Part shown: piece after piece, positions 5,612-60,537 of the stretch
How the letters are laid out: the number at the start of each line of letters is the position of its first letter
Position numbering within the stretch: position 1 is the first letter of the stretch
Source: a phage
Sequence record: PZ386976.1
Reading direction: 5' to 3' (one strand)
Length of the DNA stretch: 64,000 bases
The notes under the pieces: model-generated
Databases searched by the model: none
What the model saw: only the letters and a program-made list of their open reading frames with translations
What the model was told of the DNA's origin: nothing
Translations under genes and position numbers: made by a program

Positions 5612-6168
5612 TCAGTGTACTTCAAGCCAATTCTTACCAACTTTACCAGTACCAGTTACAAGCGTTTCCTCCTTAAGCCCTAAGTTTCTTGATGCCTGAC
5701 CATACATCCAGTCAATCACTGCTTTAACATCCTGTGTCATCTCTTCTGGGCACTCCCAACTATTCTCATCGTGGTATGCTAAAAGCAATCTAGCACCAAT
5801 AGCTGGTTTTCGACCATTCAGCTTTGTAAGACCCTCTTCACAAGTCCTTCTACAAGCAAGGTTGATGGCTTCATTCTGAACCTGACTTTCCGAACCCATG
5901 AGCAAGTAATTTAAAAGTTTGTGCGGAGATTTACACCACAACCATGCACCTGCTACCTTTACAAAACCACCCTTAGATATTGCAGCAGTCTTACCAAACA
6001 CCTCTTCAAGAGCCTTCTTAGTGGCTTTGAAGTCTGCTTCTAAATTATCTATCAACTTCTTAATTTTAGGGAGGCGTACAAAGTATGTTTGCTTAGTTAA
6101 AGCACCTTCCTCAGTTGTAGATGCTTTAATCGTCTTAGCAAATTTCTCATCGCCAGCCCCGAACAATA
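5612..6168 (-). CDS. DNA polymerase (family A, T7-like), 3' exon
   Basis: begins ...LFGAGDEKF (second half of motif B YGxxYG) and contains motif-C-like AYHDE; in-frame continuation of upstream exon if an 805 nt intron is removed. Confidence 0.7.
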
Positions 6169-6973
6169 CATCTGGTCAATACACTCGCAAGGTGTACCAG
6201 TTCTCTTATGAACTTCTCCGCATTTCTACGGAGTGTCGGACTATATCACGTAGTAGTAGTAATACTACCGTTGCACTTGGGAATGGTCATTAGCTTACCA
6301 CCCTACTCTACTCAGTTCATACGTTAAGTATGCTTTTCGATAGTCTCTGAACGTTTCTCTGTTAGGAATCTCTATAGTTATGTTATTTGCTTAGGTAGTC
6401 AATTGCCCTTTGCATATTATCAATGCTATCTGCAAGTAACCCCAAAGCTCTATTGCAATTGTGGCACAACATGCCTCTTACTTTTCCGGTTTTGTGGTCA
6501 TGGTCAACGACAAGTTTAGCCTTATGCCGTGAACTATTCATGATAAAACCTTCACCGCCACAAATTTGACATTTGTAATCACAGTTACGAAGTAGGGTCT
6601 CAACCTCTTCTCTTTCTAAACCATATGTTCTCAGGTAGTAATTCTTAACTCTACCTTTCTCTCCACAATGCGAAGAACAATAAACTTGCCTTGCTGTTCT
6701 AGGCATGAACACCTTCTCACAGCTAGGACATTTCTTAGTAAGAACCCTATATTCTGCTCTTCTGTCAAATTTTAATACGCAACTTCTGCACCGTTTTTGA
6801 TTGTATTGGTACGGTTTAAACTCCGTGCCACACTCAGTGCATAATCTCTCTTCGTAACCTGCCATTGTCTCTCTCCTTTGTTTTAGGAGTCCTAACAGAG
6901 ACTTCGCTGCTGATTACCATATCTTTACAGACTTAGGCTTCCAGCAATTCACAACGTTTTACATGCGCCACTG
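6169..6973 (-). mobile_element. putative group I intron interrupting the DNA polymerase gene, carrying an HNH endonuclease ORF
   Basis: polymerase frame breaks inside motif B; exon 1 ends in U and intervening segment ends in G (minus strand); joining restores ...AKNGIYALLFGAGDEKF, which resembles the T7 motif B region. Confidence 0.5.
6383..6865 (-). CDS. HNH homing endonuclease (intron-encoded)
   Basis: Cys-rich zinc-binding N-terminus and HNH motif VDHDHKTGKVRGMLCHNCNRALG. Confidence 0.65.
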   Translation of the reverse strand: MAGYEERLCTECGTEFKPYQYNQKRCRSCVLKFDRRAEYRVLTKKCPSCEKVFMPRTARQVYCSSHCGEKGRVKNYYLRTYGLEREEVETLLRNCDYKCQICGGEGFIMNSSRHKAKLVVDHDHKTGKVRGMLCHNCNRALGLLADSIDNMQRAIDYLSK

Positions 6974-9146
6974 ACGCATAAATGCCATTTTTGGCTTTCT
7001 TACGGCCTTTACTAATTTCCTGAAGAAGATTTGTATCCTGAGTGGCTCGACAGGTCAAGATATCTTCCTCTTTATTAAGGCTGAAGTAGATGCTATTTAA
7101 AGTATGCGCATCAGTTCCTGAGTACACCACGTACAAGTCATTTTCCGAATCATAATGCAAATACTTGTCAATCTCTGGGTTTAGATACTGGTCAAAATGT
7201 TTGCAATAGTATCTGCCATCCTCTTGTTTGACAAACTCAACCTCTTCTTTACCCTCTGTCACTGCTTTAGTGAACTCCTTATCACCCATAAAGTTGCACA
7301 GCAGCACAAGTTGGGCACTATTCATATCTGCTGAAACAATATTAGTTCCTTCCTCACAAGTCCACACCTCCCTCATAGGCGCTCCATAGACAGCAGCACC
7401 AGACGGTACGTTTACAATACCATATTGTGTCATACGTCCAGTTGAAGTACCAAACACCATTGCACCAGCACTAAGGCGACCATCAGGACGAATCTGGTTA
7501 AGCCAACCTTTTTCATCATCCTTTGAGTTCTCAATAGTTCTGCGTCGGTGCATCAAAGTGTAGTATTTCGCAATCTTCTGTCCAAGCTCACCTTCAATCG
7601 TATCATAAGATGATTCAGTAAGTTTTGGTGAAGTACGGATTAAGCAAGGTTCAAGCAAATCTGTGTATTTCTTCACAGACCAGTTATGCTCAATGTACTG
7701 TACACCTTCATGTTCAACATAACTCAAACCACACCGCTCAACCATTTCCTGCCACTTAGGATGTTTTGTAATCATCTTTTTATTGTCTTTGAAACGACAA
7801 ACTTTGACAGGGCGACCATCTGAGTCTTTCTTGTAGTTCCAGTCATCTGGAATCCAACCAACTGATTTCAAGTAGTCTTTAACAACTGCTACCTGAGTCA
7901 TACGAGAAACTTCAAACTCAATTGGTGTATATGGTGCATCAATCAAACCTGTGTAGCGACTTGACTCAAGTTCAAAGTGGTTAACAACGTGGCTGTTATA
8001 GTACTTCACAGTTTTGACTGTTTTTACTGGCTTCCAGTCTTTGCACTTCTTACCAATCTTTGCATTCAACTCATTGCAAATTGCACGAGCATCCTTCATT
8101 GCTACAAAACCTTCCTTGTACTCTTCACCAGTTACAGTGTTGGTTGGTGTATAGCAATTCCTTTTTTCAATGTTAAAAATCTTTGTAGTTGGCTTACCAA
8201 ATGGTTTGATTTCATATGTTTGCATCTCACCGTTACGCACCTGCTGACGATACTTTGTCTTAGGGTACTTGGTAATTCTCTTCAGTCCATCTGCATGACC
8301 AAATGTTTCAACATACTCATTCCAAGCTTTTGCAAACTCTTCTCCAGTGACTTTACCTTTGGTCTTAATAGTTGGAGGTAGATGCGGTTCAACCTCTGAA
8401 GCAAGCTCATTAGTCAATTTGTCAAGTTCCTTCACATGGAACTCCATAAGCTCTTTATCAGCTTTCCAGCCATTAATAGCTTGTTGACTCATCCAGAAAG
8501 ATGTCTCTTTAGCTCGCATGTAAGTCTCATAAGTGTCTATACCACACTTCTTAAGCTTGAGATACTCGTTATCAAGTGCCCGTTTAGTTTTGGCGTTAAT
8601 ACGGATATCTTCTACAACACGAGTGAAGATTTCTGCATTCCACACACCCCAATGTTCAATCTCTGGTTTACGGACACCAACACGAGCACCCCATGCAGCC
8701 AAACCATGAGCACCTTTATAACCCTTTGGAGTTGGTCTATCCATCCACTGAACACGAGACTGGATAAGAGAATCCTGAAAGAAATTACTCCACGGCTTAC
8801 ATTTTGGATTATCAAAGTTCCATAAATCCGGTGCAATGTGATTGAAGACCCACCAGTCATAACCGAGGCCGTTATGGATACAAAGTCGTTTTGCCTTTAA
8901 CGCAAACTCAACACCTTCACGTAAACCACCCTTGATGTACTTAGTGTACTTGTGACCGAGGATAGGCTCATCTGTAAAGACCCATACAGGTGGCTCTTCA
9001 TCGTCAGATTTATAGTCTGCAAAAGCCATTACGTGAACTTTAGTGAACTCAAGGAGTAAACCATCAGTCTCTGTATCACCAACTAAATGTAAGTTTTTAA
9101 AATCTACGTTTTCCATTTTTACTCCCTCTAAAATCATTAACCTCAT
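6974..9146 (-). CDS. DNA polymerase (family A, T7-like), 5' exon with 3'-5' exonuclease domain
   Basis: Exo motif DTETDGL, T7-like FNHIAPD/AWG region, motif A SADMNSAQLVLL, start of motif B RKKAKNGIY; ORF then diverges into intron sequence. Confidence 0.8.
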
Positions 9147-14984: not shown

Positions 14985-16031
14985 ATGGAGAAGTATACGC
15001 TAACAAAACTTCCCGATTCAGTTACACATGTCTTTATTGACTCTGACAGTATTGCCTATAAAGGTGCTTGTGTAGTTGAGAAAGCAAAATATAAATACGT
15101 CAATAAACTCACAGCAGAAGAATCTGAATCATTTGATAATGCAAAAGATGCTGCAAGATGGTTAACAGACCAGAGAATCTTTGTGGAAGAGCTTGGCCTA
15201 ACATTTGATGAAGATGAATGGGAAAGACAGACTTGGAAAGAAGCTAAGAGTGAAAAAGAAGCTATCATGGCTACTCAGCAGGTTCTTCAGGAATGGCTTA
15301 AGGTTGTTGGTAAAGAAAGAACTTGGGTAGGTTACTTAACAGAGAAGGGTGTACATAAACATAAAGACATTAAAGGTCTTGAGCACCAATATCAAGGTAA
15401 CCGTAAAGAGGCTATCACACCAACACACTTAGTCGCTTGTCGTGAATACCTTCTGTCAAGACCAGAGTTCAAATTGATTCTTGATGGATTTGAAGCTGAC
15501 TCTATCGTGATTGCTAAAGCTGAAAAGATGGGTAAAAAGGCTGCCTTAATGAGCATTGATAAAGACCTTCGCCAAGCTGAAGGCACTTACTGCATTGATA
15601 TGACCTATGAAAAATCACCTTTAATCTTCATTGCTGATAACAACGTTGGTGAAATTTGGGATTGTCCAATAAAATCGACACCAAAAGCTAAGAAGACAGT
15701 TGGGGTAGGTTTTAAATTTCTTTGCTATCAAGCTGTGGCTGGCGACAATGCGGATAATTATTTTGGTTTAAAGGGTGTTGGTAAAGCTACTGTGATGAAG
15801 GCTCTTGAAGGGAAAACAACTTACAAAGAGTGTCTTGATGCTATCTATGAACTTTATGCTAAGAAAGAGTCCTACACTTATGTCTCGTGGGATGGTCAAA
15901 CAGTTACCAGAACACCTTTAGAACTAATGCAGCAACACTTCTTCTTAGCTTATCAGGAAAGAAATAAGAAAGATGATTTTACTTTTGATAAGTATGGGTG
16001 GACACCAAATGTTAACTCAACAAACTCTTAA
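14985..16031 (+). CDS. 5'-3' exonuclease / flap endonuclease
   Basis: acidic metal-binding clusters FIDSDSIAY, GFEADSIV, AVAGDNADNY and helical-arch GLKGVGKAT. Confidence 0.7.
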   Translation: MEKYTLTKLPDSVTHVFIDSDSIAYKGACVVEKAKYKYVNKLTAEESESFDNAKDAARWLTDQRIFVEELGLTFDEDEWERQTWKEAKSEKEAIMATQQVLQEWLKVVGKERTWVGYLTEKGVHKHKDIKGLEHQYQGNRKEAITPTHLVACREYLLSRPEFKLILDGFEADSIVIAKAEKMGKKAALMSIDKDLRQAEGTYCIDMTYEKSPLIFIADNNVGEIWDCPIKSTPKAKKTVGVGFKFLCYQAVAGDNADNYFGLKGVGKATVMKALEGKTTYKECLDAIYELYAKKESYTYVSWDGQTVTRTPLELMQQHFFLAYQERNKKDDFTFDKYGWTPNVNSTNS

Positions 16032-16500
16032 AGAGTACCTACATTATGACCCCGAAACAGGGGTCTTTACTTGGATTAAGAAATCTGCTAGACACACAAA
16101 AATTGGCTCTGTTGCAGGTACAAACTTAAGAGGGTACACCAGAATTTATTTGTTTGGTAAGGGTTATTATGCACATACCCTAGCCGTTCTGTATATGGAT
16201 GGATACCTACCTGAGTGTGTTGACCATAAAAATCATGTAACACTAGACAATCGCTGGGTAAATCTTAGGGCATGTACGTTATCAGAGAACCAATGTAATA
16301 GGTTGCTCAATAAGAACAATAAATCAGGTGTTAAAGGTGTGTACTACAAAAAACAGTATGGTAAGTGGTCTACACAGATAACTTTTAAGAAGAGGGTCTA
16401 CTTCTTCGGCAACTATGACACTATTGATGAAGCAGCAGAGGTTGTAAATAGGGAACGTCAACGTTTACACAAAGAGTTTGCTAATAAAGGTGATGAATGA
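16009..16500 (+). CDS. free-standing HNH homing endonuclease with AP2-like DNA-binding domain
   Basis: HNH_3-like VDHKNHVTLDNRWVNLRACTLSEN and AP2-like SGVKGVYYKK...YFFGNYDTIDEA; ORF 15973.. trimmed to internal Met. Confidence 0.6.
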   Translation: MLTQQTLKEYLHYDPETGVFTWIKKSARHTKIGSVAGTNLRGYTRIYLFGKGYYAHTLAVLYMDGYLPECVDHKNHVTLDNRWVNLRACTLSENQCNRLLNKNNKSGVKGVYYKKQYGKWSTQITFKKRVYFFGNYDTIDEAAEVVNRERQRLHKEFANKGDE

Positions 16501-22785: not shown

Positions 22786-23982
22786 ATGAACAAAGTACAG
22801 ATTATTAAAAAGAATGGCTCACTCGAAGAACCTGATATCAAAAAAGTTTTAGCAGCAGTCACAAAGTCAGCTAATAGGGTTGGGTATAAAGAACTCCCAC
22901 CAGATGTTACTCAAGCTCTTGAGTCAGCATTTATGAGGATTCTGGTAAAGTCCACTAAGCAGAATAATTTGCTAATTTCTGTAAACGATATTCACAGTAT
23001 TGTTGAGGGTGCTTTGGCAGAAGTCAATCACGAAATTTATGAGTCTTACTCAACATACAGAAATTACCGTAAAGAAGTTGCTCAAAATTGGGATGAACTC
23101 TACCAGAAGACCAAAGATACACTCTTCTTAGGTGACAGAGAGAATGCTAACTTTGACAGCAGTTTAATTTCTACAAAAGGCTCAATTATTCGTGGTTACC
23201 TGACTAAAGAAATCTTTAAACAGTACCATTTAACACCAGAGGAACTTGAAGCCATTGAAAAAGGGTTTATCTATATCCATGATTTAAGAGACCTAATTTT
23301 TGGTGGTATCAACTGTTGCCTGTTTGACATTGGTAAAGTCCTGAAAGGTGGCTTTGAAATGTCTGGCATCGAATATTGTGAACCAAAGTCTGTGCTGTCG
23401 GCCTTACAGGTTATTGGTGACGTAGTTCTTTCAGCAACTGCACAGCAATTTGGTGGCTTTACTTTAGCAGAGATTGATAAGGTACTCGTACCGTATGCTA
23501 AGAAGTCTCTACGCTATCATGCTGAGAAAGCAGCATCTTATGGTATTCCTAAAGAACATTACCACAATTATATCATGGAGCAGCTACAGATTGAACTGAC
23601 TCAAGGTTTCCAGTCACTTGAAATGAAACTCAATACTGTGCCTTGTAGCCGTGGGGATTTTGCATTTACAACTTTGACATTCGGGTTACTTGATTCAGAT
23701 ATGTCTAATGAAGATAACCGACTGCAATACATGATTGCAAGTACTCTCCTAGATGTTCGTATGAATGGACAAGGTAAGAGCAAGAAGCCTGTTGTATTCC
23801 CTAAACTGGTTTATATTTATGACCAGAAGAGACACGATGAGAATATCTGTCAAGGACACCTGTACAGTAAAGCCATTGAGTGTTGCTCTAAAGCAATGTA
23901 TCCAGATTTCTTAAGTGTATCTGGTCATGGTGCTGTAGCAGAGGCTTTTGAGCGTTCTGGTAAGGTTATTTCACCGATGGGT
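22786..23982 (+). CDS. nrdD: anaerobic ribonucleotide reductase, 5' exon
   Basis: ORF ends ...VISPMG then stop; continues in frame at 24725 as CRAFLSPYL... (reconstitutes a PMGCR motif). Confidence 0.75.
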
Positions 23983-24724
23983 TAACAAGCTCTATAGCTC
24001 ATCTAAAACGTGCCTAAACAGGGAAACTCTACAGATGTAGACAATCCTGTGCTAAATGATGTACGATGTAAGAAACTATACAACATAGGAGTCTTACATG
24101 CCAAACTATCACGTCACTGAAGATGGAAAAGTCTTTAGGGAAAATGGTGTAGAGCTTACGCAGTGGAAATCCAACACTGGGTATATGAAAGTGAGGTTTT
24201 ACGGTAAGAAGAATCGTGACATGTATGTCCACAGGTTAGTTGCTGAGAAATATGTACCTAACCCGAATAATCTTCCAATTGTAAAACATAAGGACGATAA
24301 CAAACTAAATAACCACGCATCTAACTTAGAATGGGGTACTCATTCTGAGAATGCTAAAGAAGGTTATGAGAACGGTTGCTACAAGTTCCACAAGCGTTCA
24401 TATGCCGTGAAAGCCACACACAAAGTGACAAGGGAAGTTATTGTTACTAAGTCAATACGAGAGTTATCCAATATACTTGGACACAATCGCAAGACCATCT
24501 CTTCAATATTGAAGGGTGTAAAAGAGCATAATAACTTCGAATATGAGTTTGAATACATCTAAATGCCGAACGACTAACCGTGATGAATGTAGCGGTGTAG
24601 GGTCAAGCGACTCGAAATGGTACGCTACTTAGAAATAAGTAGAAGATATAGTCTGGACTTACTGGCGACAGTAAGCAGCTTGAATAAAGCGGGGTAAGCT
24701 TAGCGAACTTACCTGAACAACAAG
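23983..24724 (+). mobile_element. putative group I intron in nrdD carrying an HNH endonuclease ORF
   Basis: 5' exon ends with T, stop codon immediately after splice site, intron ends with G; G/C-rich structured 3' region 24565-24724. Confidence 0.55.
24098..24562 (+). CDS. HNH homing endonuclease (intron-encoded)
   Basis: 154 aa ORF with His/Asn-rich HNH-like core (HKDDNKLNNHASNLEWGTHSEN). Confidence 0.6.
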   Translation: MPNYHVTEDGKVFRENGVELTQWKSNTGYMKVRFYGKKNRDMYVHRLVAEKYVPNPNNLPIVKHKDDNKLNNHASNLEWGTHSENAKEGYENGCYKFHKRSYAVKATHKVTREVIVTKSIRELSNILGHNRKTISSILKGVKEHNNFEYEFEYI

Positions 24725-25672
24725 TGTAGAGCATTTTTATCACCATATCTTAACGAGAATGGGGAAGAGTTCTATGTAGGTCGTGCTAACATTGGTGCTG
24801 TGTCTTTGAACTTACCAATGATTTACCAGTATTCTAAAGAGAATGAATTAGATTTCTGGAAAGAGCTTGATAAGTACCTAGAAATGATTCGCAGCTTCCA
24901 CAAGAAACGTTACGAAATGATTGCTAATATGCCAGCAAGTTCTAACCCTCTTGCGTTCACACAAGGTGGTCTGTACAAAGGGAATAAGAAACCTACTGAC
25001 AGGGTTGGCTGGGATATCGTGAAGTCCTTCACAGCTTCTTTTGGGGTTACTGCGCTTGATGAGCTATCTGTTCTTGCTGAAGGTAAACGACTTCATGAAG
25101 TTGGAAGCTGTAGTTTTGCATACGATGTTCTGGAATACATCAACATGAAAACTGAAGAGTTTAAAAATGAAGATGGCTTCTTATATGCCGTCTATGGTAC
25201 TCCAGCAGAATCACTTTGTGGAACTCAGCTAAAACAGTTCAGAGATATGTTTGGCGTTATCAAAGGTGTTTCTGATAAGGAATACTTTACAAACAGCTTC
25301 CATATGAATGTTGCAGCAGACATTACACCATTTGAGAAGCAGGACTTAGAAGAACCCTTCTTCCATATCTGTAGAGGCGGTAGAATCCAGTATGTAAGAG
25401 TGGCTAATCCAGAAAACTTATCAGCACTTAAGAGTTGTATTACGAGAGGTATGTTGAAAGGTTTCTATCAGGGACTGAACTTTGACTTAGCAATCTGTGA
25501 ACATTGCGGTAACAGACCAAAGGCTGATGTTGAAGAATGTGAGGTTTGTCATTCACATGATATCTCTGTGATTAACAGGGTGTGCGGGTATCTCGGGTGG
25601 ACTAAGATTAAAGGCGAATCCCGAATGAATGATGCAAAAATCGCTGAGATTCGTGACAGAGTTTCTATGTAA
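24725..25672 (+). CDS. nrdD: anaerobic ribonucleotide reductase, 3' exon
   Basis: C-terminal Cys cluster and glycyl-radical motif RVCGYLG. Confidence 0.75.
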   Translation, partial: CRAFLSPYLNENGEEFYVGRANIGAVSLNLPMIYQYSKENELDFWKELDKYLEMIRSFHKKRYEMIANMPASSNPLAFTQGGLYKGNKKPTDRVGWDIVKSFTASFGVTALDELSVLAEGKRLHEVGSCSFAYDVLEYINMKTEEFKNEDGFLYAVYGTPAESLCGTQLKQFRDMFGVIKGVSDKEYFTNSFHMNVAADITPFEKQDLEEPFFHICRGGRIQYVRVANPENLSALKSCITRGMLKGFYQGLNFDLAICEHCGNRPKADVEECEVCHSHDISVINRVCGYLGWTKIKGESRMNDAKIAEIRDRVSM

Positions 25673-28053: not shown

Positions 28054-28104
28054 ACAGATACTATAAGGGAACCTTTACAGTTCCCTTTTTATTTTGGAGA
28101 TAAA

Positions 28105-28620
28105 ATGTATCTGTCAAACCTGAAACGTTCGGCTGCAATGTCAGTTCTAAGACTCAGCTTTGAGGAACGTCAAGAGTTCATTGACTCCCACCAATACGAC
28201 CCTTCTAACTCGAATCACATGGTTCTTTGGAATCGTGATAACTTCCGTGAAAGAGCACTTGTCCGTTATTACCCACACTACACAATAGATAACCTGTATG
28301 AATGGTGTGTTGTGAAGAACACTATTGCAACACTGAACAATCTTTGCAGGTATACAGGTAAGCAAGCATTTACATTAGGTCACCACAAACCTGTTACAAA
28401 GGGTGGTGAGCATCACTGTGCAAACTGGTTTATCCAGACTAAACTTGATAACCAGAAGCAAGGAGATAGCCTTCTAAGCATCCCTAAGATGACCTATGAA
28501 GAGCAAGAGAAATATATCAAAAATAATATGCCAGATGTGCTTGACAACAACTATACAGATTTGGCAATATCTCTCCTGTTGAAGTTCGAGACAGTTTATA
28601 GGGCAACTTACAATGGCTAA
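28105..28620 (+). CDS. putative HNH-family nuclease
   Basis: LGHHKPVTKGGEHHCANWFIQTKLDNQKQ resembles an HNH core. Confidence 0.35.
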   Translation: MYLSNLKRSAAMSVLRLSFEERQEFIDSHQYDPSNSNHMVLWNRDNFRERALVRYYPHYTIDNLYEWCVVKNTIATLNNLCRYTGKQAFTLGHHKPVTKGGEHHCANWFIQTKLDNQKQGDSLLSIPKMTYEEQEKYIKNNMPDVLDNNYTDLAISLLLKFETVYRATYNG

Positions 28621-28891
28621 AGAGAAGTGGGAGCTTTTACCATTAATCAGTGAAGGCGGTAATGGTTGTGAAATGTACATGATACGTGGTCATGTTCCAG
28701 AACCAATTGCACTTGAGATGGTAAACAACTTTACAGATGGCTCTTACAAAGACTTAGAGGAGCCAACTATAAAGCAGCAATGGGTAAAGCCTGTACCAGA
28801 TAGCACAGGTAACTGTAGTGTACTTTATCACGTTGTAGACCCTGCAAAATGCAAATCTGCAATGGCAGTAACAAACGTAACTTTTGATTGA
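28613..28891 (+). CDS. hypothetical protein
   Basis: 92 aa ORF. Confidence 0.4.
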   Translation: MAKEKWELLPLISEGGNGCEMYMIRGHVPEPIALEMVNNFTDGSYKDLEEPTIKQQWVKPVPDSTGNCSVLYHVVDPAKCKSAMAVTNVTFD

Positions 28892-29784
28892 GAGGGAAAA
28901 CTATGAAAACTGTTATTGAAGCCGTCGTCACCGCACAAGAGAAATTCTTCCACACAGAAAAATTTAATATCATTCAATTCCCATCTGGAGAAATTGGTGG
29001 AAACTTCTCTGAAGATTTTGTTAAGTTTACTGAGCGTAATGCTGGTAAGATTGATAATGTTATACTTACTGTACAGGGATATGACAAAGACACACTGTTT
29101 GCATTAGCTTTGGCTAAAGATGCCGTTGACAGTCTTGTTCCCCAGAAATCAGCGATGAAAACCGTTGTTTTCGGGTTCTTACCAAATGCTCGATATGACC
29201 GCCACATGTTCAAAGGTGATGCAGCAGCACTGAAAGTCTTTGCCAACCTCGTTAATGCAATGGGTTTTGATGCAGTATGTGCTCTTGACCCTCACAGTAA
29301 TGTTGCAGAAAACTTATTTAAGTGCTTTCAGAGCATGAAGCAAAAAGATGTTGCAGCACACTTTGCAAGTGACCCACGCATTGATTTCTTGGTAGCCCCA
29401 GATGCAGGTGCAGCTAAGAAGACTGAAAATACCGCTAAAGAAGTGGATAAACCGTATATCACAATGTCTAAGGTACGTAACCTTAAGACTGGTGAAATTA
29501 CTGGTATGCGAATCCTTGATGATGTTGATTTGACAGATAAAACTGTCATGATTCTGGATGATATTTGTGATGGAGGCCGAACCTTCGTAGAGGCAGCGAA
29601 ACACCTACGCGAAGCAGGTGCAAAACGTGTGGAACTATATGTAACACATGGAATTTTCTCTAAAGGTGTTGAAAACTTGCTTGACAACGGAATCGACCAT
29701 ATCTACACTACAAACACTTTAGGTGAAGCTAAAGACCGTGGATTAACACATTATGGTCAAGTTACTGTAGCAAACATTGATTGA
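28888..29784 (+). CDS. ribose-phosphate pyrophosphokinase (Prs)-family protein; candidate ADP-ribose pyrophosphokinase of a phage NAD-reconstitution pathway
   Basis: Prs-like motifs VAPDAGAAKK and MILDDICDGGRTF; immediately upstream of Nampt-like gene. Confidence 0.7.
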   Translation: MRGKTMKTVIEAVVTAQEKFFHTEKFNIIQFPSGEIGGNFSEDFVKFTERNAGKIDNVILTVQGYDKDTLFALALAKDAVDSLVPQKSAMKTVVFGFLPNARYDRHMFKGDAAALKVFANLVNAMGFDAVCALDPHSNVAENLFKCFQSMKQKDVAAHFASDPRIDFLVAPDAGAAKKTENTAKEVDKPYITMSKVRNLKTGEITGMRILDDVDLTDKTVMILDDICDGGRTFVEAAKHLREAGAKRVELYVTHGIFSKGVENLLDNGIDHIYTTNTLGEAKDRGLTHYGQVTVANID

Positions 29785-29794
29785 AACTTTATAG

Positions 29795-29815
29795 GGGGCT
29801 TCAAAGCCCCATTTT
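29795..29815 (+). terminator. stem-loop, terminator-like
   Basis: ggggct-tcaa-agcccc then ATTTT. Confidence 0.4.
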
Positions 29816-29830
29816 GAGAGAGATTAAAAG

Positions 29831-31612
29831 ATGACTAAATCACTTTATGCAGTACCAGCAGGTTTAAATGCGGACGCTTACAAGTCTGGCCATATATACC
29901 AGTACCCCAGTGCAACAGAGTACTTGATGTTCAACCTGACACCACGTAGCGACAAATGGTTTAACAGCCCTTTGGCAATTGACGGTGTAGTGGCTTTTGG
30001 TATTCAACGTTTTGTTAAAGATTACTTGATAGACCACTGGAATGCCACTTTCTTTGAACGTGATAAAAAAGAAGCAATTGACGAAATCTTAGAAGTCATG
30101 AATGGTGTTCTGGGTAAAGATGCTATCGGTCGGGAGCATTGGGAAGCACTTCACGACTTAGGTTATCTACCAGTTGGAGTATACGCTGTAGAAGAAGGCA
30201 CAGTTGTCCCTATGCGTGTTCCGATGATTGTTTTCCAGAACACTGTTTCAGGTTTCCATTGGGTAGCAGGTTATCTAGAAGATGCTTTCTCTGCTGAGAT
30301 TTGGAAGGCTTGTACCATTGCAACTATTGCATTGCACTACAAACGTATCTGTAAGAAGTGGGCTGACCTTACTTGTGATAACGACTTACATTTACCTTAT
30401 CAGTGCCATGACTTTGCTATGCGTGGTATGTCCGGCTTTACTGATGACGCATTTAACGCTGTAGGCCACTTAACCAGCTTTAAAGGGACTGATAGCTTCC
30501 CTGCTGTATATACAGCTAAACGCATCTACGGACAGTCTTACCCAGTCTCTGATATTGGTGGTTCTGTACCAGCCACTGAACACTCTGTAATGTGTGCAAA
30601 CATTGCTTGGGAAGGTGGTAATGAATTGATTGAAGAAGAAAGACGCTTTAAAGGTGAATTACAAACCTTCCGTCGCTTCTTAACAGAAACTTATCCAACT
30701 GGTATTGCAAGTGTTGTTTCAGATACTTATAACTTCTGGAGAACTGTGTCAGAAATCTTACCAGCACTCCGTAAAGAAATTATGGAACGTGATGGTAAAC
30801 TGGTGATTCGTCCTGACTCTGGAGACCCTGTACATATTGTCACAGGCTATAAAGCAATCCACTTAGAGTGTGCTAAGAAGGCTTATTACGAGCACCTGAG
30901 CAAGCTGGAAGCTAGTGACACAATGCTGAATGCTGTTCTGAACATGAAGCTTGAAAACATCAACTATGGTATTGCTGGATGGCTACTGTCAGAAGGCTAC
31001 GAAATGGTTGTTGACAGAGAAGACTTTGAAGTTGCGGATACAGTATTGCTAAAGAACGCTTATATGGTTGGTTCTGCAAACGTTGTAACACGCCCTGTAG
31101 CAGAGATTGATGGAGCTATTAAGACACTGTACAACATCTTTGGAGGGACTATCAACTCTAAAGGGTTTAAGGTACTGGATGAGCACATCGGCCTTATCTA
31201 TGGTGACTCTATCACACTGGAACGTGCAAACGAAATCCTGAAGCGCCTGTATGAAATGGGTTTTGCAAGCTCTAACGTAGTGTTTGGCGTAGGCTCTTAC
31301 ACTTACCAGTACATGACTCGTGACACCTTTGCATTTGCTGTCAAAGCAACTCTTGCAAGCATTGGTGGTAAAGAGGTTATGCTTGCAAAAGACCCTAAAA
31401 CAGATAGTGGTGTTAAGAAGTCTGCTTTTGGTGGTGTAGCACCTATGTGGGATGGTGATAAGTTGAAAGCTGTAGATGGCTATGGATTCCAGAGCTTTGC
31501 AGATGCACTTGAACATCCAGCTTGTGCTTTACGTTTAGTCTTTAGTGACTCTGAGCAGTACGGTTACACATCTCTTGGTGATATTCGAAATAATATTGAC
31601 AAGCAGCTTTAA
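29831..31612 (+). CDS. nadV: nicotinamide phosphoribosyltransferase-like protein
   Basis: 593 aa; NadV/Nampt-like length and N-terminal MTKSLYAVPAGLNADAYKSGH. Confidence 0.75.
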   Translation: MTKSLYAVPAGLNADAYKSGHIYQYPSATEYLMFNLTPRSDKWFNSPLAIDGVVAFGIQRFVKDYLIDHWNATFFERDKKEAIDEILEVMNGVLGKDAIGREHWEALHDLGYLPVGVYAVEEGTVVPMRVPMIVFQNTVSGFHWVAGYLEDAFSAEIWKACTIATIALHYKRICKKWADLTCDNDLHLPYQCHDFAMRGMSGFTDDAFNAVGHLTSFKGTDSFPAVYTAKRIYGQSYPVSDIGGSVPATEHSVMCANIAWEGGNELIEEERRFKGELQTFRRFLTETYPTGIASVVSDTYNFWRTVSEILPALRKEIMERDGKLVIRPDSGDPVHIVTGYKAIHLECAKKAYYEHLSKLEASDTMLNAVLNMKLENINYGIAGWLLSEGYEMVVDREDFEVADTVLLKNAYMVGSANVVTRPVAEIDGAIKTLYNIFGGTINSKGFKVLDEHIGLIYGDSITLERANEILKRLYEMGFASSNVVFGVGSYTYQYMTRDTFAFAVKATLASIGGKEVMLAKDPKTDSGVKKSAFGGVAPMWDGDKLKAVDGYGFQSFADALEHPACALRLVFSDSEQYGYTSLGDIRNNIDKQL

Positions 31613-31627
31613 AAGTATATGATAAGA

Positions 31628-31648
31628 GGCTCCTACGGGAGCCTTTTT
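31628..31648 (+). terminator. rho-independent terminator
   Basis: ggctcc-tacg-ggagcc followed by TTTTT. Confidence 0.5.
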
Positions 31649-31665
31649 AATTTCTGGAGAAAACT

Positions 31666-39100: not shown

Positions 39101-39886
39101 ATGGGTATTGTAAAAATCATCAATGGTGATATCTTTGCAGCATTTGATAAAGGTAAGTTTGACGTCATTGGTCACGGTTGCAACTGTATGAATTTAATGG
39201 GTGCAGGTATCGCTGACAAGATTTCTAAACTTTACCCAAAAGCATATGAGACTGATACAGAAGTTTATCTATATGCAGGCGGTATAGGCCACAAACCCTG
39301 TGAAAATTTACTGGGTAATTTCTCCGTAGCACGTTTAAAACAAGGTCGTATAGCTAACCTTTACACTCAGCTTAAGACTGGTAAAGATGCCAGATACAGT
39401 GCTTTAGAGTCATCTTTGAAACAGCTTAACAGATACTGTGAAGTCAACCAGTTGAAGAAGGTTGGTCTACCTATGATTGGTGCAGGTATCGGTGGGCTAG
39501 ACCCTCAAGCCGTCACAGTTATCATTAATCAGGTGATGAAGAGTGTAGATGTGTATCTTTATGTCTACGAAGGAGAGATGTACCACAAGTTACGCTCAGG
39601 TTGGAAGAACTACTGTGAACCAGAATACTTTGCAGGTGTAGTAGTGTTCACTAATGATGCAGTTACCCTCTTCAGACGAAGAAAAGGTAAGATACATCAA
39701 AGTAACCCTCCGGTTGAAAAGATGTCTCTAAGTAACGCTCTAGTTACCCACCTGTCGAAGAGCAGTCACAGGATTGCAGTAACATTTGGCAGTGATGCAG
39801 ATGCTTACATCTATGCAAGAACTGATGAGGATATCGAGACGGTTTTCTCTTCACCAGAGCTTACCTTCTTAGACGCAAAGAACTAA
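39101..39886 (+). CDS. macrodomain protein (putative ADP-ribose binding/hydrolase)
   Basis: macrodomain-like glycine motifs VIGHGCNCMNLMGAGIA and PMIGAGIGGL; extra C-terminal ~100 aa. Confidence 0.55.
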   Translation: MGIVKIINGDIFAAFDKGKFDVIGHGCNCMNLMGAGIADKISKLYPKAYETDTEVYLYAGGIGHKPCENLLGNFSVARLKQGRIANLYTQLKTGKDARYSALESSLKQLNRYCEVNQLKKVGLPMIGAGIGGLDPQAVTVIINQVMKSVDVYLYVYEGEMYHKLRSGWKNYCEPEYFAGVVVFTNDAVTLFRRRKGKIHQSNPPVEKMSLSNALVTHLSKSSHRIAVTFGSDADAYIYARTDEDIETVFSSPELTFLDAKN

Positions 39887-50373: not shown

Positions 50374-50558
50374 TCAAGGTCAACAAGTCTTTGCAGGACT
50401 TTCCCTCTAGGTGTTACACCTTTTAAATCTGCATCGTAGCAACGGTAAAAGTCACCTTCAGCATGTTTACCGTGGCATTTTCTGATATTCTGACTTCTAC
50501 GATATTGTTCTAATAGAGATAGCTTGTAGTAATCTTCAACTGTAGTTAGTTTTTTCAT
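50340..50558 (-). CDS. hypothetical protein
   Basis: 72 aa ORF. Confidence 0.35.
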   Translation of the reverse strand: MKKLTTVEDYYKLSLLEQYRRSQNIRKCHGKHAEGDFYRCYDADLKGVTPRGKVLQRLVDLEWNKRLREVGK

Positions 50559-51100
50559 TCTTTCACCATAGCATTTCTGAACTGACGTTGAGTTTCTCTT
50601 GTAATTTCGTTTGGAGTAAATCCTGCTTTCAGCATATCTCTGAAAAGAACTTCTAAGTGGTTCCTTTCAATGATGTAAACAGCATTCTGAACAGATGTTT
50701 TAAGTTCCTTCAGGTCACTACTAATCTCTTCGCACTTACTTGTAAGTTCTGTGTCAGCCTTCTTAAATACTGGCATGAGATGTGTATGTCCACCTTTAGC
50801 AGCATCCATGAAAAATTTAAAAGATTCTTCAGAGTCCTTTAAAGCAATCCCGATAAAGTTCTTGTAAGCACCTGTGAAAGCTAAAGACTCAATCTCAGCA
50901 GTTGAGTATACAGTCCCTGCGCACAGTCTTGCAGAGGTACTAAATGTGTGGTTTGGTGTTATGTCAAAGTCTAAGTTCTTCAGTGGTCGAAAATAAACTG
51001 TGCCAGTATGTGAGACATGTGTTACAACAGCCTCCACACTCTTTGAAGGGTTCTGTTTCACATACAAAATAATTTTATCGTGTTCTTTTACTTTAGGCAT
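50555..51100 (-). CDS. hypothetical protein
   Basis: 181 aa ORF. Confidence 0.45.
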   Translation of the reverse strand: MPKVKEHDKIILYVKQNPSKSVEAVVTHVSHTGTVYFRPLKNLDFDITPNHTFSTSARLCAGTVYSTAEIESLAFTGAYKNFIGIALKDSEESFKFFMDAAKGGHTHLMPVFKKADTELTSKCEEISSDLKELKTSVQNAVYIIERNHLEVLFRDMLKAGFTPNEITRETQRQFRNAMVKE

Positions 51101-58222: not shown

Positions 58223-58299
58223 CTCTGTTTAGCTCAGCTTGGTAGAGCGTTCCGTTTGGGGCGGTAAGGCCGGAGGTTCAAGTCCTCCAACAGAGACCA
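58223..58299 (+). tRNA. tRNA-Pro: tRNA-Pro (anticodon TGG)
   Basis: manual cloverleaf: acceptor ctctgtt/aacagag, anticodon loop ttTGGgg, T-arm ggagg-ttcaagt-cctcc, CCA encoded. Confidence 0.6.
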
Positions 58300-58316
58300 A
58301 ATTTAAAGGGGTTACT

Positions 58317-58673
58317 ATGAGATTTTTAAAAGAATGTCCAGTTCATGGTTTAACTGAACATAGCATTCATAAGAATGGTAACGCCGGTAATAGAGTAAAT
58401 TGTCTAAAATGTTGTGCATTAAGGACAAAACTTAGAGAGGATGCCAATAGGGAGAAAGCATACAAGTTTTATGGCGATAGTTGCAAAATTTGTGGCTATA
58501 ATAAATGTAAAAATGCTTTAGAATGGCATCACCTTAACCCAAACGAAAAAGAGAATACACCATCAAAAATTATGGGTGCATCTTGGGAAAAGGTTAAAAA
58601 AGAACTTGATAAATGTGTTTTGCTCTGTGCTAATTGCCACAGAGAGGTTCATAGTGGAATTACAACGGTTTAA
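58317..58673 (+). CDS. HNH homing endonuclease within tRNA cluster
   Basis: Cys-rich zinc-binding elements and HNH motif EWHHLNP...LLCANCHREVH; ORF 58239.. trimmed to MRFLKE because upstream part overlaps tRNA-Pro. Confidence 0.6.
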   Translation: MRFLKECPVHGLTEHSIHKNGNAGNRVNCLKCCALRTKLREDANREKAYKFYGDSCKICGYNKCKNALEWHHLNPNEKENTPSKIMGASWEKVKKELDKCVLLCANCHREVHSGITTV

Positions 58674-58674
58674 T

Positions 58675-58749
58675 GTCGTAGAAGGCAAATGGTTAGCCAC
58701 CTGACCTTCAATCAGTTGCTCGCAGGTTCGAATCCTGTCTACGACACCA
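58675..58749 (+). tRNA. tRNA, anticodon tentative (TTC, Glu?)
   Basis: acceptor gtcgtag/ctacgac, T-arm gcagg-ttcgaat-cctgt, CCA encoded; anticodon loop ccTTCaa has atypical C33. Confidence 0.45.
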
Positions 58750-58753
58750 GTTT

Positions 58754-58832
58754 TGACAGAAGACCAATTACAGCAAACTTAATCTTATTCATCTGAAGGT
58801 AAATCGGACAAAGAAGAGATTTGGTCTGGTCA
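58754..58832 (+). ncRNA. conserved bulged-helix module 1 (outer stem tgac/gtca, 5' AGA bulge, inner stem agaccaa/ttggtct, 3' G bulge)
   Basis: one of four copies with covarying outer stems; encloses AT-rich loop. Confidence 0.35.
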
Positions 58833-58840
58833 TTAAGAAT

Positions 58841-58917
58841 TGCGGGTATAGAGAAAGGGCGTCTCACATGTCTCATTAGCATGGTATCGGCAGGTTCGAC
58901 TCCTGCACCCGCCTCCA
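58841..58917 (+). tRNA. tRNA-Met/Ile2 (anticodon CAT), initiator-like unpaired 1:72
   Basis: acceptor (t)gcgggt/acccgc(c), anticodon loop ctCATta, T-arm gcagg-ttcgact-cctgc, CCA encoded. Confidence 0.5.
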
Positions 58918-58920
58918 ATT

Positions 58921-58986
58921 TTGCAGAAGACCGTATTCAGCAACAAACTACTTTTTGCGGATAAAAGAAAAAACACGGTCTGGCAA
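58921..58986 (+). ncRNA. conserved bulged-helix module 2 (outer ttgc/gcaa, inner agaccgt/acggtct)
   Basis: same architecture as module 1 with compensatory base changes. Confidence 0.35.
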
Positions 58987-58994
58987 TGTATTAA

Positions 58995-59071
58995 GGTTAG
59001 GAAGCACATAAGGTATGTGCGGTCGCCTGTTAAGCGAATGGCACAGGGTTCGAATCCCTGACTAACCGCCA
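58995..59071 (+). tRNA. tRNA-Asn: tRNA-Asn (anticodon GTT)
   Basis: acceptor ggttagg/actaacc, D-arm gcac-ataaggtat-gtgc, anticodon arm gtcgc-ctGTTaa-gcgaa, T-arm caggg-ttcgaat-ccctg, CCA. Confidence 0.7.
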
Positions 59072-59140
59072 AATTTAGGAGAGAAGCGATTGCTCACCGA
59101 TTTGTAAGGTGCAAGTCCTTAGCCTGAATAGAAATTAAAT

Positions 59141-59228
59141 GTGTCGTTATCCCGTAGATGGTAGCGGTGGGGACTGTAAATCCCTTGTCATTGAGACTCG
59201 GTAGGTTCGACTCCTACACGGCACACCA
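59141..59228 (+). tRNA. tRNA-Tyr: tRNA-Tyr (anticodon GTA), long variable arm
   Basis: acceptor gtgtcgt/acggcac, anticodon arm gggga-ctGTAaa-tccct, long variable arm, T-arm gtagg-ttcgact-cctac, CCA. Confidence 0.65.
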
Positions 59229-59233
59229 ATAAA

Positions 59234-59311
59234 GGTTATGTAGTTTAATTTGGTTAAAATACTCCCCTGTCACGGGAGATGATGAGGGTTCAAATCCCTT
59301 CGTAACCGCCA
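59234..59311 (+). tRNA. tRNA-Asp: tRNA-Asp (anticodon GTC)
   Basis: acceptor ggttatg/cgtaacc, anticodon arm ctccc-ctGTCac-gggag, T-arm gaggg-ttcaaat-ccctt, CCA. Confidence 0.7.
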
Positions 59312-59369
59312 ATTTTGAGAGGGCTATTTAGCCCCTCCCTTAAAGGGTTCTTACGAGTATCCTTTAAAG

Positions 59370-59451
59370 GAGCAGAAGACCAAATACAGCAAGAACGTAT
59401 GAAAATTTCAAGCCAATTTAATTTTGAAAAATTTAAAACTTGGTCTGGCTC
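59370..59451 (+). ncRNA. conserved bulged-helix module 3 (outer gagc/gctc, inner agaccaa/ttggtct)
   Basis: same architecture, compensatory outer-stem change. Confidence 0.35.
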
Positions 59452-59458
59452 AACAAAT

Positions 59459-59595
59459 TTACAGAAGACCGTTTACAGCAAAACTTAAACAATCTATTTC
59501 TCGGTAAAGAAAAGGCGAAGGTTCGATTCCTTCACTCGGCAGATGTCGAGTTGGTGTAATGGTAGCACTTAAGATGATAAACAACGGTCTGGTAA
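59459..59595 (+). ncRNA. conserved bulged-helix module 4 enclosing a circularly permuted tRNA-like domain; candidate Y-RNA-like RNA
   Basis: outer ttac/gtaa, inner agaccgt/acggtct; enclosed 59517-59568 has T-arm gaagg-ttcgatt-ccttc, 7-bp hairpin actcggc-agat-gtcgagt (acceptor-like) and D-arm-like gtg-taatggtag-cac in permuted order. Confidence 0.35.
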
Positions 59596-59736
59596 TTATC
59601 TTTGTAGATAAGTTATTAAGCTTACCTGTGAGTATGCGACCACAAAGGGTGAAAGGGTAAATTCTAGATTTAAACCCAAAAAGGCACATCGCTACAGACC
59701 TTAAGCAAGTCTGGGTAGCTTATCTACAAAGATAAT
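59595..59736 (+). ncRNA. long hairpin with perfect 18-bp stem enclosing ~106 nt
   Basis: attatctttgtagataag (59595-59612) is the exact reverse complement of cttatctacaaagataat (59719-59736); no ORF. Confidence 0.3.
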
Positions 59737-59741
59737 TTAAT

Positions 59742-59817
59742 GGAAGTGTAGCAGAATGGTGATGCGGCAGACTTTTAATCTGACAGGCGATGGGTTCGAA
59801 TCCCTCCACTTCTACCA
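59742..59817 (+). tRNA. tRNA-Lys: tRNA-Lys (anticodon TTT)
   Basis: acceptor ggaagtg/cacttct, D-arm gca-gaatggtga-tgc, anticodon loop ctTTTaa, T-loop ttcgaat, CCA. Confidence 0.6.
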
Positions 59818-59821
59818 AAAT

Positions 59822-59898
59822 GGTTCAGTCGCAGATAAGGTAATTCAAGGGTCTCATAAGACCTATGAATGTGGGTTCGATTCCCATCTGAACCTCCA
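59822..59898 (+). tRNA. tRNA-Met/Ile2 (anticodon CAT), tentative
   Basis: acceptor ggttcag/ctgaacc perfect, anticodon loop ctCATaa, T-arm gtggg-ttcgatt-cccat, CCA; D-arm irregular. Confidence 0.45.
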
Positions 59899-59900
59899 AT

Positions 59901-59975
59901 TGTGGGTTAGCATAAATGGTAATGCAAACGGCTGATAACCGTTAGAAGAGGGTTCGATACCCTCACCTACAACCA
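59901..59975 (+). tRNA. tRNA-Ile: tRNA-Ile (anticodon GAT)
   Basis: acceptor tgtgggt/acctaca, D-arm gcat-aaatggta-atgc, anticodon arm aacgg-ctGATaa-ccgtt, T-arm gaggg-ttcgata-ccctc, CCA. Confidence 0.7.
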
Positions 59976-59990
59976 ATTTCAATAAAGTTG

Positions 59991-60019
59991 TTGACATTGA
60001 GATGTGACTACTTTATAGT
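59991..60019 (+). promoter_or_regulatory. sigma70-like promoter inside tRNA cluster
   Basis: TTGACA, 17 nt, TATAGT; followed by ~200 nt ORF-free region before next tRNA. Confidence 0.5.
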
Positions 60020-60222
60020 AACCTTAGTTTTCGTTGCGTAGCGTCTATTTTGCAAATTTAAAATAAATGCAAACGACAATGTTTTTCTGGCAGTAGCTTG
60101 ATAGGCTAAACACCAGTGAGGTCTTCCAATCCCTCATCAAAGAATTTGGCGTACTAGCCCACGGTATGATTAATAAGGTGGGCATCTTTAAGTGCTTTCT
60201 GAGAGAGTCTTTAAAGATTAAT

Positions 60223-60524: not shown

Positions 60525-60537
60525 AAGTCTTATTAGG

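Follow-up and report, generated by a model that had tools for sequence, protein, structure and literature searches.

A probable NARP1-type NAD+ reconstitution operon in a Felixounavirus genome

The DNA analyzed here (64,000 nucleotides, referred to as the window) is from a Felixounavirus genome that is collinear with E. coli phage Bas63 (JohannRWettstein), with a nucleotide identity of approximately 90-97%. Two same-strand ORFs, adps and namat, lie in the nrdG...rIIA context as in Bas63, and namat starts 46 nt past the end of adps (Table 1). The profile scores of both ORFs were far beyond chance, and the same adjacent pair was found in 256 phage records, 209 of which cover at least 80% of the query. 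A sequence-only reading of the window had placed a Prs-like gene directly upstream of a Nampt-like gene at 28888-31612. Both ORFs were confirmed, but the 5′ boundary had to be revised. The mechanical ORF for adps (28888-29784) begins with TTG, and the ATG at 28903 is likely to be the true start because it is preceded by GAGAGGG and because the Bas63 annotation begins at the equivalent ATG. The GAGAGGG sequence and the stop codon of the upstream 92-aa ORF (28889-28891) overlap.

Table 1. Coordinates of the adps-namat region and of the distant Macro-domain gene, numbered from the first base of the window.
Feature	Position	Strand	Remarks
Two tightly packed ORFs	28105..28891	+	171 aa and 92 aa; upstream of adps
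Shine-Dalgarno-like GAGAGGG	28890..28896	+	6 nt upstream of ATG 28903; read from the sequence
adps	28903..29784	+	293 aa; putative ADP-ribose pyrophosphokinase, Prs-family
Intergenic hairpin GGGGCU-UCAA-AGCCCC, then AUUUUG	29795..29810	+	between adps and namat
namat	29831..31612	+	593 aa; putative nicotinamide ADP-ribose transferase, Nampt-family
Selectivity-clamp loop (SCL), RSDKWFNSPL	29945..29974	+	Namat aa 39-48; from alignment with SpβL1
Namat catalytic core F195, D221, H251 (phospho-histidine), R327	30413..30811	+	motifs HDF, GTD, ATEHSV, RPDSGDP
Lineage-specific insertion in Namat	30848..31111	+	aa ~340-427; directly after RPDSGDPVHIVTG
Selectivity-clamp helix (SCH), GSYTYQYMTRD	31292..31324	+	Namat aa 488-498; fits the Namat consensus
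Intrinsic-terminator-like hairpin	31624..31647	+	10-bp stem, tetraloop, U-run; 12 nt past the namat stop codon
Macro-domain protein	39101..39886	+	261 aa; equivalent to Bas63_0095 'putative phosphatase'; ~7.5 kb downstream of the operon

The boundaries of the transcription unit were drawn solely from terminator-like hairpins. The hairpin following namat has a folding energy of -16.6 kcal/mol (z -3.26), and another at 28065-28087 precedes the 171-aa and 92-aa ORFs. Because both ORFs lie between the latter hairpin and adps, they may be co-transcribed with adps. The 171-aa ORF corresponds to phrog_3500, with a weak HNH-like match, and the 92-aa ORF to phrog_4726. Three distant relatives have a homolog of the 171-aa ORF (40-50% identity) upstream of adps, and none was found beside NARP1 in SpβL1 or IW18. 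We did not regard the two ORFs as parts of NARP1, because synteny of the 171-aa ORF is restricted to the Ounavirinae-like lineage and the published Bas63 deletion removed genes 79-80 alone. The hairpin between adps and namat was weak (centroid -11.4 kcal/mol, z -1.96) and fell outside the criteria of the terminator scan; it may be a candidate RNA-stability or attenuating element. In two distant relatives, this intergenic position is occupied by a gene for an HNH homing endonuclease. Promoter scanning of the 24-35 kb region returned 34 sites where 28 ± 5 were expected and was uninformative, and Rfam at the gathering threshold detected tRNAs only, with no RNA family matched within or near the operon.

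Adps passed the cut-off of TIGR01251 (ribose-phosphate diphosphokinase subfamily; 139 bits, cut-off 113) as well as those of Pfam PF00156 and PF14572, matched phrog_619 with an E of 5e-99, and had Prs structures as its best sequence matches in the PDB. Among the NCBIfam models only the broad subfamily model was passed, and the score was far below the cut-off of every Prs equivalog (at best 114 vs 296 and 102 vs 297). When compared with gp79 of Bas63 (Bas63_0079), 288 of the 293 residues were identical (98%), leaving 5 substitutions, and the identity was 32% to Adps of Bacillus phage SPbetaL1 (SpβL1) and 32-45% to other NARP1 Adps proteins. K162 of SpβL1 Adps, the mutation-validated catalytic lysine equivalent to K197 of B. 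subtilis Prs, aligns to K190 of the present protein (nt 29470-29472), within the conserved K-x-R-N...TGE context. Bas63 Adps is one of the queries that define the Adps clade of phages, and a Namat gene is located in the immediate vicinity for 97% of the clade members. The present Adps appears to belong to this clade, apart from cellular Prs. With PADLOC, Adps only weakly matched the PRTase domains of PsyrT and ShosT (E about 1e-6), which we read as generic fold similarity, and Namat gave no match.

Namat scored 466 bits against NF006629 (cut-off 405), a model labeled nicotinate phosphoribosyltransferase 'equivalog' that does not separate Namat from Nampt, and also matched PF04095 (E 1e-34) and phrog_448 (E 8e-202). 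It is 97% identical to gp80 of Bas63 (Bas63_0080; 578 of 593 residues, 15 substitutions) and 46% identical to SpβL1 Namat, and no validated functional residue is among the substitutions of Adps and Namat relative to Bas63. The core residues F195, D221, H251 and R327 map to F189, D215, H245 and R306 of SpβL1 Namat, all of which are validated by mutation, and these residues and the surrounding motifs are invariant in 28 homologs. As judged from the alignments, the mutation-validated catalytic and clamp residues of SpβL1 are all conserved or conservatively replaced in the present proteins.

The adenine selectivity clamp, a feature by which Namat is distinguished from Nampt, is likewise present. 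In the SCL, K42 aligns to R40 of SpβL1 and the next residue is W43, as in Bas63 Namat. According to the published rule, adenine stacking shifts to position 4 when position 3 is Lys or Tyr, and Bas63 Namat is the example of this second, non-Arg type of SCL (PMC12774641); W43 is thus the predicted stacking residue. The consensus of the SCH in Namat is GS-X-Φ-X-Φ-X-Φ-TRD (PMC12774641). Here, the aromatics Y490 (position 3) and Y494 (position 7) align to F392 and Y396 of SpβL1 and are predicted to stack against the adenine of ADPR-PP or NAD+, and the third Φ is Met instead of the usual Asn or Val. In true Nampts, the corresponding sequences are GGALLQKVDRD (Xcc) and GAQTYQRNTRD (HdNadV), in which both aromatics are absent. 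The AF2 model of Namat (pLDDT 93.1) gave a consistent result, because the top Foldseek matches were the Namat crystal structures 9w5x and 9w5w (TM 0.95, target-normalised), which outranked HdNadV and mammalian NAMPT.

The locus agrees with NARP1 of Bas63 in genus, genomic position, gene order and gene lengths (293 and 593 aa), and also in the type of clamp (K42-W43 and GSYTYQYMTRD) and the insertion in Namat. A difference in gene content is bas63_0081, a small gene directly downstream of namat in Bas63, which is absent from the window. SpβL1 also has an adjacent adps-namat pair, and its Namat structures are available (9W5W, 9W5X; PMC12774641). However, the SpβL1 SCL uses a stacking Arg instead of K-W, and the two SpβL1 genes overlap, whereas those in the window are separated by the 46-nt spacer containing the hairpin.

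NARP1 (NAD+ reconstitution pathway 1), consisting of Adps and Namat, was discovered in the gp79-gp80 operon of Bas63. Deletion of genes 79-80 reduced the plaques of Bas63 about 20-fold on SIR2-HerA, protection was kept in a ΔpncCΔnadR host, and ADPR-PP was seen only when wild-type Bas63 was combined with the defense system (Osterman et al., bioRxiv 10.1101/2024.02.11.579819). Bas63 Adps did not purify, and the biochemistry was performed with the SpβL1 proteins, to which Adps and Namat of the window show the 32% and 46% identity given above. SpβL1 Adps converts ADPR and ATP to ADPR-PP and gives no PRPP-synthetase product. SpβL1 Namat converts ADPR-PP and nicotinamide to NAD+, and NAD+ was the only product when both donors were offered, although a PRPP-dependent, NMN-forming side activity is retained in vitro. 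By analogy, this allele is inferred to behave as the Bas63 and SpβL1 proteins do, both in chemistry and in anti-defense. An NAD+-depleting defense of the host with a SIR2-, TIR- or SEFIR-type effector, for example SIR2-HerA/Nezha, type I Thoeris or DSR, would split NAD+ into ADP-ribose and nicotinamide. Adps would then transfer pyrophosphate from ATP to the terminal ribose of ADP-ribose, yielding ADPR-PP, and Namat would exchange the pyrophosphate of ADPR-PP for nicotinamide, forming NAD+ directly with neither NMN nor an adenylyltransferase. The pathway would be idle in undefended cells, because its substrates arise only once the defense has fired.

We consider it very probable that adps and namat constitute the NARP1 operon of this Felixounavirus, on the basis of orthology, conservation of the residues for catalysis and specificity, the predicted fold and the failure to detect an NMN adenylyltransferase (NMNAT). 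The sequence-only reading had favored Adps/Namat reconstitution over Prs/NadV salvage and proposed to compare the proteins with characterised members of both groups. This comparison supports its choice, since the identity to gp79 and gp80 is 98% and 97%, the validated residues and the clamp of Namat match the Namat side, and Adps remains under the Prs equivalog cut-offs. Its remark that no NMNAT is evident nearby also holds. No PF01467-type (NMN adenylyltransferase) domain was detected among the 61 ORFs with a length of 100 aa or more in the window, using three lists of families, one of which consisted of the best 25 of 30 families with the remainder all weaker than E 0.0037, or in the small flanking ORFs, which were scanned separately. 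The ORFs of Adps and Namat themselves matched Prs- and Nampt-type families only. The genome extends approximately 23 kb beyond the window; the same region of Bas63 carries structural genes, thymidylate synthase and DHFR, and NMNAT is not annotated in that near-identical genome. The absence of NMNAT alone is a weak argument, because the host could supply this step.

Such a supply is the basis of classical salvage, in which a true PRPP synthetase and a true Nampt/NadV would produce NMN and the host NadR or PncC would complete NAD+, so that the genes would serve as a general boost of nucleotide and NAD supply rather than as a counter-defense. The names given by Pfam, NCBIfam and GenBank point that way, and cellular Prs and Nampt/NadV (HdNadV, 9KE8; Xcc Nampt, 7YQO; human NAMPT) share the folds and the catalytic chemistry, namely pyrophosphoryl transfer to C1 of ribose and subsequent displacement of the pyrophosphate by nicotinamide. 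The substrates are different, however: ribose-5-phosphate and PRPP for the cellular enzymes, ADP-ribose and ADPR-PP for NARP1. This explanation is highly improbable, because Bas63 gp79-80 protect without pncC and nadR, because the SpβL1 enzymes showed the product specificity described above, and because the present Adps scores below all the Prs equivalog cut-offs while Namat carries the adenine clamp that true Nampts do not have. Some classical salvage alongside NARP1 is possible, given the side activity of Namat. An even smaller probability is assigned to a pathway of the NARP2 type, as in Vibrio phage KVP40, where Nampt and a phage NMN adenylyltransferase produce NAD+ from PRPP, nicotinamide and ATP. 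Namat and the KVP40 Nampt are both members of the Nampt superfamily, and NARP2 similarly restores NAD+ during an NAD+-depleting defense. Nevertheless, NARP2 starts from PRPP and needs the adenylyltransferase, whereas the scanned ORFs of the window and the Bas63 annotation contain no PF01467/NMNAT-like domain and an Adps partner is present instead; in addition, the two pathways were not found together in any phage of the published survey (bioRxiv 10.1101/2024.02.11.579819). In KVP40, the NAD genes (Nampt, Nmnat) were not located in the 200-245 kb stretch.

A separate question is whether NARP1 is extended here by the Macro-domain protein. In NARP1-AP of Vibrio phages Gary and IW18, the operon has the order Adps-Adpp-Namat, and its Adps (40%) and Namat (39-45%) resemble the present proteins (bioRxiv 10.64898/2026.01.28.702374). 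The Macro gene of NARP1-AP is within the operon and encodes 158 aa, unlike the distant and longer gene of the window. The latter is the sole Macro gene found in the window, and no Macro domain was matched at E up to 1 in the nine ORFs flanking NARP1. Its product scored 32 bits against PF01661 (cut-off 22), E 2e-112 against phrog_335 'phosphatase' and 48 bits against DarG of PADLOC. IW18 gp176 (158 aa), which is located between Adps and Namat and shares 94.9% identity with the Adpp of Gary that was tested, aligns with its domain end-to-end, including both ADP-ribose-binding loops (28% identity, pairwise E 1e-14). The identity to T4 Tk.4/AdfM is 35%. Two activities, Adpp and the anti-DarTG2 activity of AdfM, have been demonstrated within one phage Macro family with a mutual identity of about 30-35%, and the protein is a candidate accessory enzyme that could have an Adpp-like activity, an AdfM-like activity or both. 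We did not take the DarG/TARG1 likeness as an argument against an Adpp-like role, because the Adpp-type reference IW18 gp176 shows the same profile.

A split form of NARP1-AP, in which the Macro protein acts in trans as an ADPR-1''-phosphate phosphatase feeding NARP1 and confers resistance to aRES, would add to the NARP1 explanation rather than replace it. The alignment with gp176 and the shared DarG/TARG1 profile are consistent with this idea, and in the published census a Macro gene was counted only if it lay no more than two genes from NARP1. Nevertheless, we consider it rather unlikely, because the protein is closer to Tk.4/AdfM, which acts against DarTG2 in a phage that lacks NARP1, members of the family occur in a very large number of phages (about 2,800 records), the gene is many genes away from the operon, and the protein bears an extra C-terminal region of ~100 aa. 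If the idea were correct, protection would extend to aRES-type defenses, and the published census would undercount such phages. As for the combination of NARP1 with RyDEP, a RyR-domain cADPR glycosidase, no RyR-type Pfam family was found in the flanking ORFs or in the window-wide family lists.

NARP1 is already known and was published from the same phage genus, and the locus adds no new biology beyond the Bas63 work. The pathway is a general phage counter to many bacterial defenses that destroy NAD+, and is present in about 4% of sequenced phages according to a published survey. GenBank labels of the 2025 era are almost always "ribose-phosphate pyrophosphokinase" and "nicotinamide phosphoribosyltransferase", and these names obscure the anti-defense role. 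Recognition of NARP1 in this genome is therefore of value mainly for annotation. For phage therapy, a Felixounavirus bearing NARP1 is expected to infect hosts with NAD+-depleting systems of the SIR2, TIR or SEFIR type.

Inspection of Namat also revealed an insertion of ~88 aa that has no counterpart in the crystallised SpβL1 Namat and is present in Bas63 Namat. It is predicted to be an autonomous, confidently folded α/β mini-domain of Ounavirinae-type Namat and is an orphan, which could serve in regulation or interaction. A further extra insert relative to SpβL1 is located at aa ~258-272.

The sequence-only reading had placed a Prs-like and a Nampt-like gene side by side at 28888-31612 and regarded them as a candidate NAD+ reconstitution pair. 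Two neighbouring plus-strand ORFs, adps and namat, were found there with profile matches far beyond chance, and the pathway assignment was borne out by comparison with Escherichia phage JohannRWettstein (Bas63), as Adps is identical to Bas63_0079 at 288 of 293 residues (98%), Namat to Bas63_0080 at 578 of 593 (97%), and the tested determinants are kept. NARP1, in which Adps makes ADPR-PP and Namat converts it to NAD+, was discovered in these two Bas63 genes (bioRxiv 10.1101/2024.02.11.579819). In that study, Bas63 without genes 79-80 plated about 20-fold lower on SIR2-HerA, NAD+ levels were restored by the wild-type phage, and ADPR-PP (m/z 720.01) was seen only with wild-type Bas63 and the defence system. 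Because Bas63 Adps failed to purify, homologs from Bacillus phage SPbetaL1 (SpβL1) were used for the biochemistry; SpβL1 Adps turned ADP-ribose and ATP into ADPR-PP and did not behave like a PRPP synthetase in the control reaction, and SpβL1 Namat formed NAD+ from ADPR-PP and nicotinamide, favouring ADPR-PP over PRPP (bioRxiv 10.1101/2024.02.11.579819). The window pair is almost certainly the NARP1 of a Felixounavirus and would act by the same mechanism, a confidence derived from the near-identity with genes studied genetically and from each tested determinant being conserved, not from experiments with the window allele. The genomic context is also that of Bas63 (nrdD/nrdG upstream, rIIA/rIIB downstream), and the operon is essentially the same as the founding NARP1 example and thus already known.

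When the SpβL1 operon proteins were aligned with those of the window, the mutation-validated K162 of SpβL1 Adps corresponded to K190, and F189, D215, H245 and R306 of SpβL1 Namat corresponded to F195, D221, H251 and R327. Namat is told from Nampt by a 'selectivity clamp', consisting of a helix with the motif GS-X-Φ-X-Φ-X-Φ-TRD, aromatic at positions 3 and 7, and a variable loop contributing a stacking residue (PMC12774641, a structural study of Namat). The window helix reads GSYTYQYMTRD (aa 488-498), in which Y490 and Y494 line up with F392 and Y396 of SpβL1, and the loop is K42-W43, the Bas63 type of that study, whereas the helix of true Nampts is different (GGALLQKVDRD in Xcc Nampt, GAQTYQRNTRD in Haemophilus ducreyi NadV). 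The comparison with characterised Adps/Namat versus Prs/NadV, proposed as a check of the pair, put the clamp on the side of Namat. An AlphaFold2 model of the window Namat (28 homologs; pLDDT 93.1, pTM 0.91) matched the Namat structures 9w5x and 9w5w best in the PDB (TM 0.95 on target), with HdNadV and mammalian NAMPT ranking lower.

Adps scored above the cut-off of TIGR01251, a ribose-phosphate diphosphokinase subfamily model (139 versus 113 bits), and far under all NCBIfam Prs equivalog cut-offs; it also matched PF00156, PF14572 and phrog_619 (E 5e-99). Namat scored above the cut-off of NF006629 (466 versus 405 bits) and matched PF04095 and phrog_448 (E 8e-202). NCBIfam names NF006629 a nicotinate phosphoribosyltransferase 'equivalog', and nearly all GenBank records label the two genes 'ribose-phosphate pyrophosphokinase' and 'nicotinamide/nicotinate phosphoribosyltransferase'. 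Neither Namat and Nampt nor Adps and Prs are told apart by current models. The ATG at 28903 is the probable start of adps, since GAGAGGG lies 6 nt ahead and the curated start of the closest annotated relative agrees.

Coordinates of the operon and of other features in the window
Feature	Position	Strand	Remarks
adps	28903-29784	+	293 aa; mechanical TTG ORF from 28888
namat	29831-31612	+	593 aa
Main Namat insertion	30848-31111	+	aa ~340-427; directly after invariant RPDSGDP motif
Smaller Namat insertion			aa ~258-272
Terminator-like hairpin upstream of adps	28065-28087
171-aa ORF upstream of adps	28105-28620	+	phrog_3500; weak HNH-like match, residues 58-123
Intergenic GC-rich hairpin	29795-29810		-11.4 kcal/mol, z about -2
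Strong terminator-like hairpin 3' of namat	31624-31647		-16.6 kcal/mol, z -3.3
Macro-domain protein	39101-39886	+	261 aa; PF01661, 32 bits; phrog_335 "phosphatase"; Bas63_0095 homolog
Endonuclease VII-type ORF	6383-6865		inside the 6169-6975 stretch
Further stretch absent from Bas63	1749-2880	-
Further stretch absent from Bas63	15973-16500	+
Further stretch absent from Bas63	50570-51082	-

A NARP2-type arrangement, that is, Nampt with an NMN adenylyltransferase (NMNAT), was ruled out, because no cytidylyltransferase-like/NMNAT domain was found in Pfam scans of 61 window ORFs with lengths of 100 aa or more (one list giving the best 25 of 30 families, the other five all weaker than E 0.0037), and the curated Bas63 annotation has no NMNAT. 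Separate scans of the small ORFs flanking the operon gave no NMNAT domain either, so the earlier statement that none is evident nearby held. Stronger evidence than this gene absence is the published observation that Bas63 protection was still seen in a ΔpncCΔnadR host (bioRxiv 10.1101/2024.02.11.579819). Some phages add to NARP1 the Macro-domain ADPR-1''-phosphate phosphatase Adpp, which enables it to overcome aRES (bioRxiv 10.64898/2026.01.28.702374). None of the ORFs flanking the window operon is a known accessory gene (Macro/Adpp, RyR/RyDEP), and the window-wide Pfam scan gave a single, unlinked Macro-domain protein. This protein aligned over its whole Macro domain with gp176 of Vibrio phage IW18 (28% identity, E 1e-14), whose gene lies between those of Adps and Namat and whose product is 94.9% identical to the tested Adpp of Vibrio phage Gary; the window protein and gp176 share the same DarG/TARG1 similarity profile. 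T4 Tk.4, named AdfM, counters DarTG2 (bioRxiv 10.1101/2025.11.20.689424), and shows 35% identity with the window protein and 34% with Adpp. Since the three are about equidistant in one large phage family with some 2,800 records, sequence cannot choose between Adpp and AdfM activity, and a split NARP1-AP with this protein as Adpp-like partner of NARP1 is of low probability. The protein has an extra C-terminal region of about 100 aa, and Bas63_0095 is annotated 'putative phosphatase'.

The 46-nt spacer from adps to namat holds the hairpin and a ribosome-binding site, GAGAGAG. At this place, where the window has only the hairpin, two distant relatives, Salmonella phage SB18 (locus L008, 5493-5990) and Pectobacterium phage Arno162 (locus L009, 5497-5991), carry a homing-endonuclease gene, HNH_3 in both and also AP2 in one. 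Two packed ORFs (171 and 92 aa) lie between the upstream hairpin and adps, and a promoter scan was uninformative. The 171-aa ORF keeps its place upstream of adps in three distant relatives at 40-50% identity, conserved about as well as Adps, but NARP1 of SpβL1 and of IW18 lacks it as a neighbour, and it was not counted as part of NARP1. An indel of about 340 bp adjoining the operon corresponds to bas63_0081 (114 aa), directly downstream of Bas63 namat and missing from the window (31613-31665 versus 8725-9127 of the related-phage locus L001).

The window Namat is 102 aa longer than that of SpβL1, and the main insertion accounts for most of the difference in the alignment. Its prediction as a small lineage-specific α/β mini-domain was highly confident, within the Namat model as well as alone (pLDDT 93.9 alone), and no relative was detected in the PDB. 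The word "insertion" is absent from the text of the Namat structural paper (PMC12774641). The long form is kept down to 46% identity in myoviruses of roughly 85-92 kb, and the insert found there in other lineages is a different one, indicating an insertion hotspot. The insertion is compatible with function, since Bas63 Namat has it and works in vivo.

Elsewhere, an 807-bp stretch (6169-6975) absent from Bas63 breaks the family-A DNA polymerase gene (5612-9146, minus strand) into two ORFs, 737 and 184 aa long, and sub-threshold group I intron matches (E 0.001 and 0.1) flank this stretch on the same strand; the gene is probably interrupted by a mobile intron that carries a homing endonuclease. 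An HNH_3 homing-endonuclease ORF (24098-24562) divides nrdD (22786-25672, plus strand) into two ORFs; the group I intron matches here are below threshold (best E 2e-6), and the Bas63 annotation gives nrdD as joined from two pieces. In the plus-strand cluster of 24 tRNA genes with interspersed small ORFs (58223-63553), an HNH-like ORF (58239-58673) overlaps for the most part with a stretch that Bas63 lacks (58304-58724). Of the three further stretches, one contains ORFs of 146 and 200 aa that match no Pfam family, another overlaps an HNH_3 and AP2 endonuclease ORF, and one is overlapped by a 181-aa ORF (50555-51100) with no significant match.

The entire window is collinear with Bas63 (BASEL, MZ501086) from 25991 to 87100 and then 1-222, at about 90-97% identity. 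Since 63779-64000 thus continues beyond the Bas63 end and onto its beginning, the source record is permuted relative to Bas63, circular or terminally redundant. For the 2.7-kb operon region 256 phage records gave a match, almost all of them Felixounavirus with Escherichia, Salmonella, Shigella and Citrobacter as hosts. A few 'Campylobacter phage' records match too, and GU169904.1, 'Staphylococcus phage SA1' (147 kb), shares about 24 kb with the window phage at 94-95% identity, NARP1 operon included; that record is probably chimeric or contaminated.
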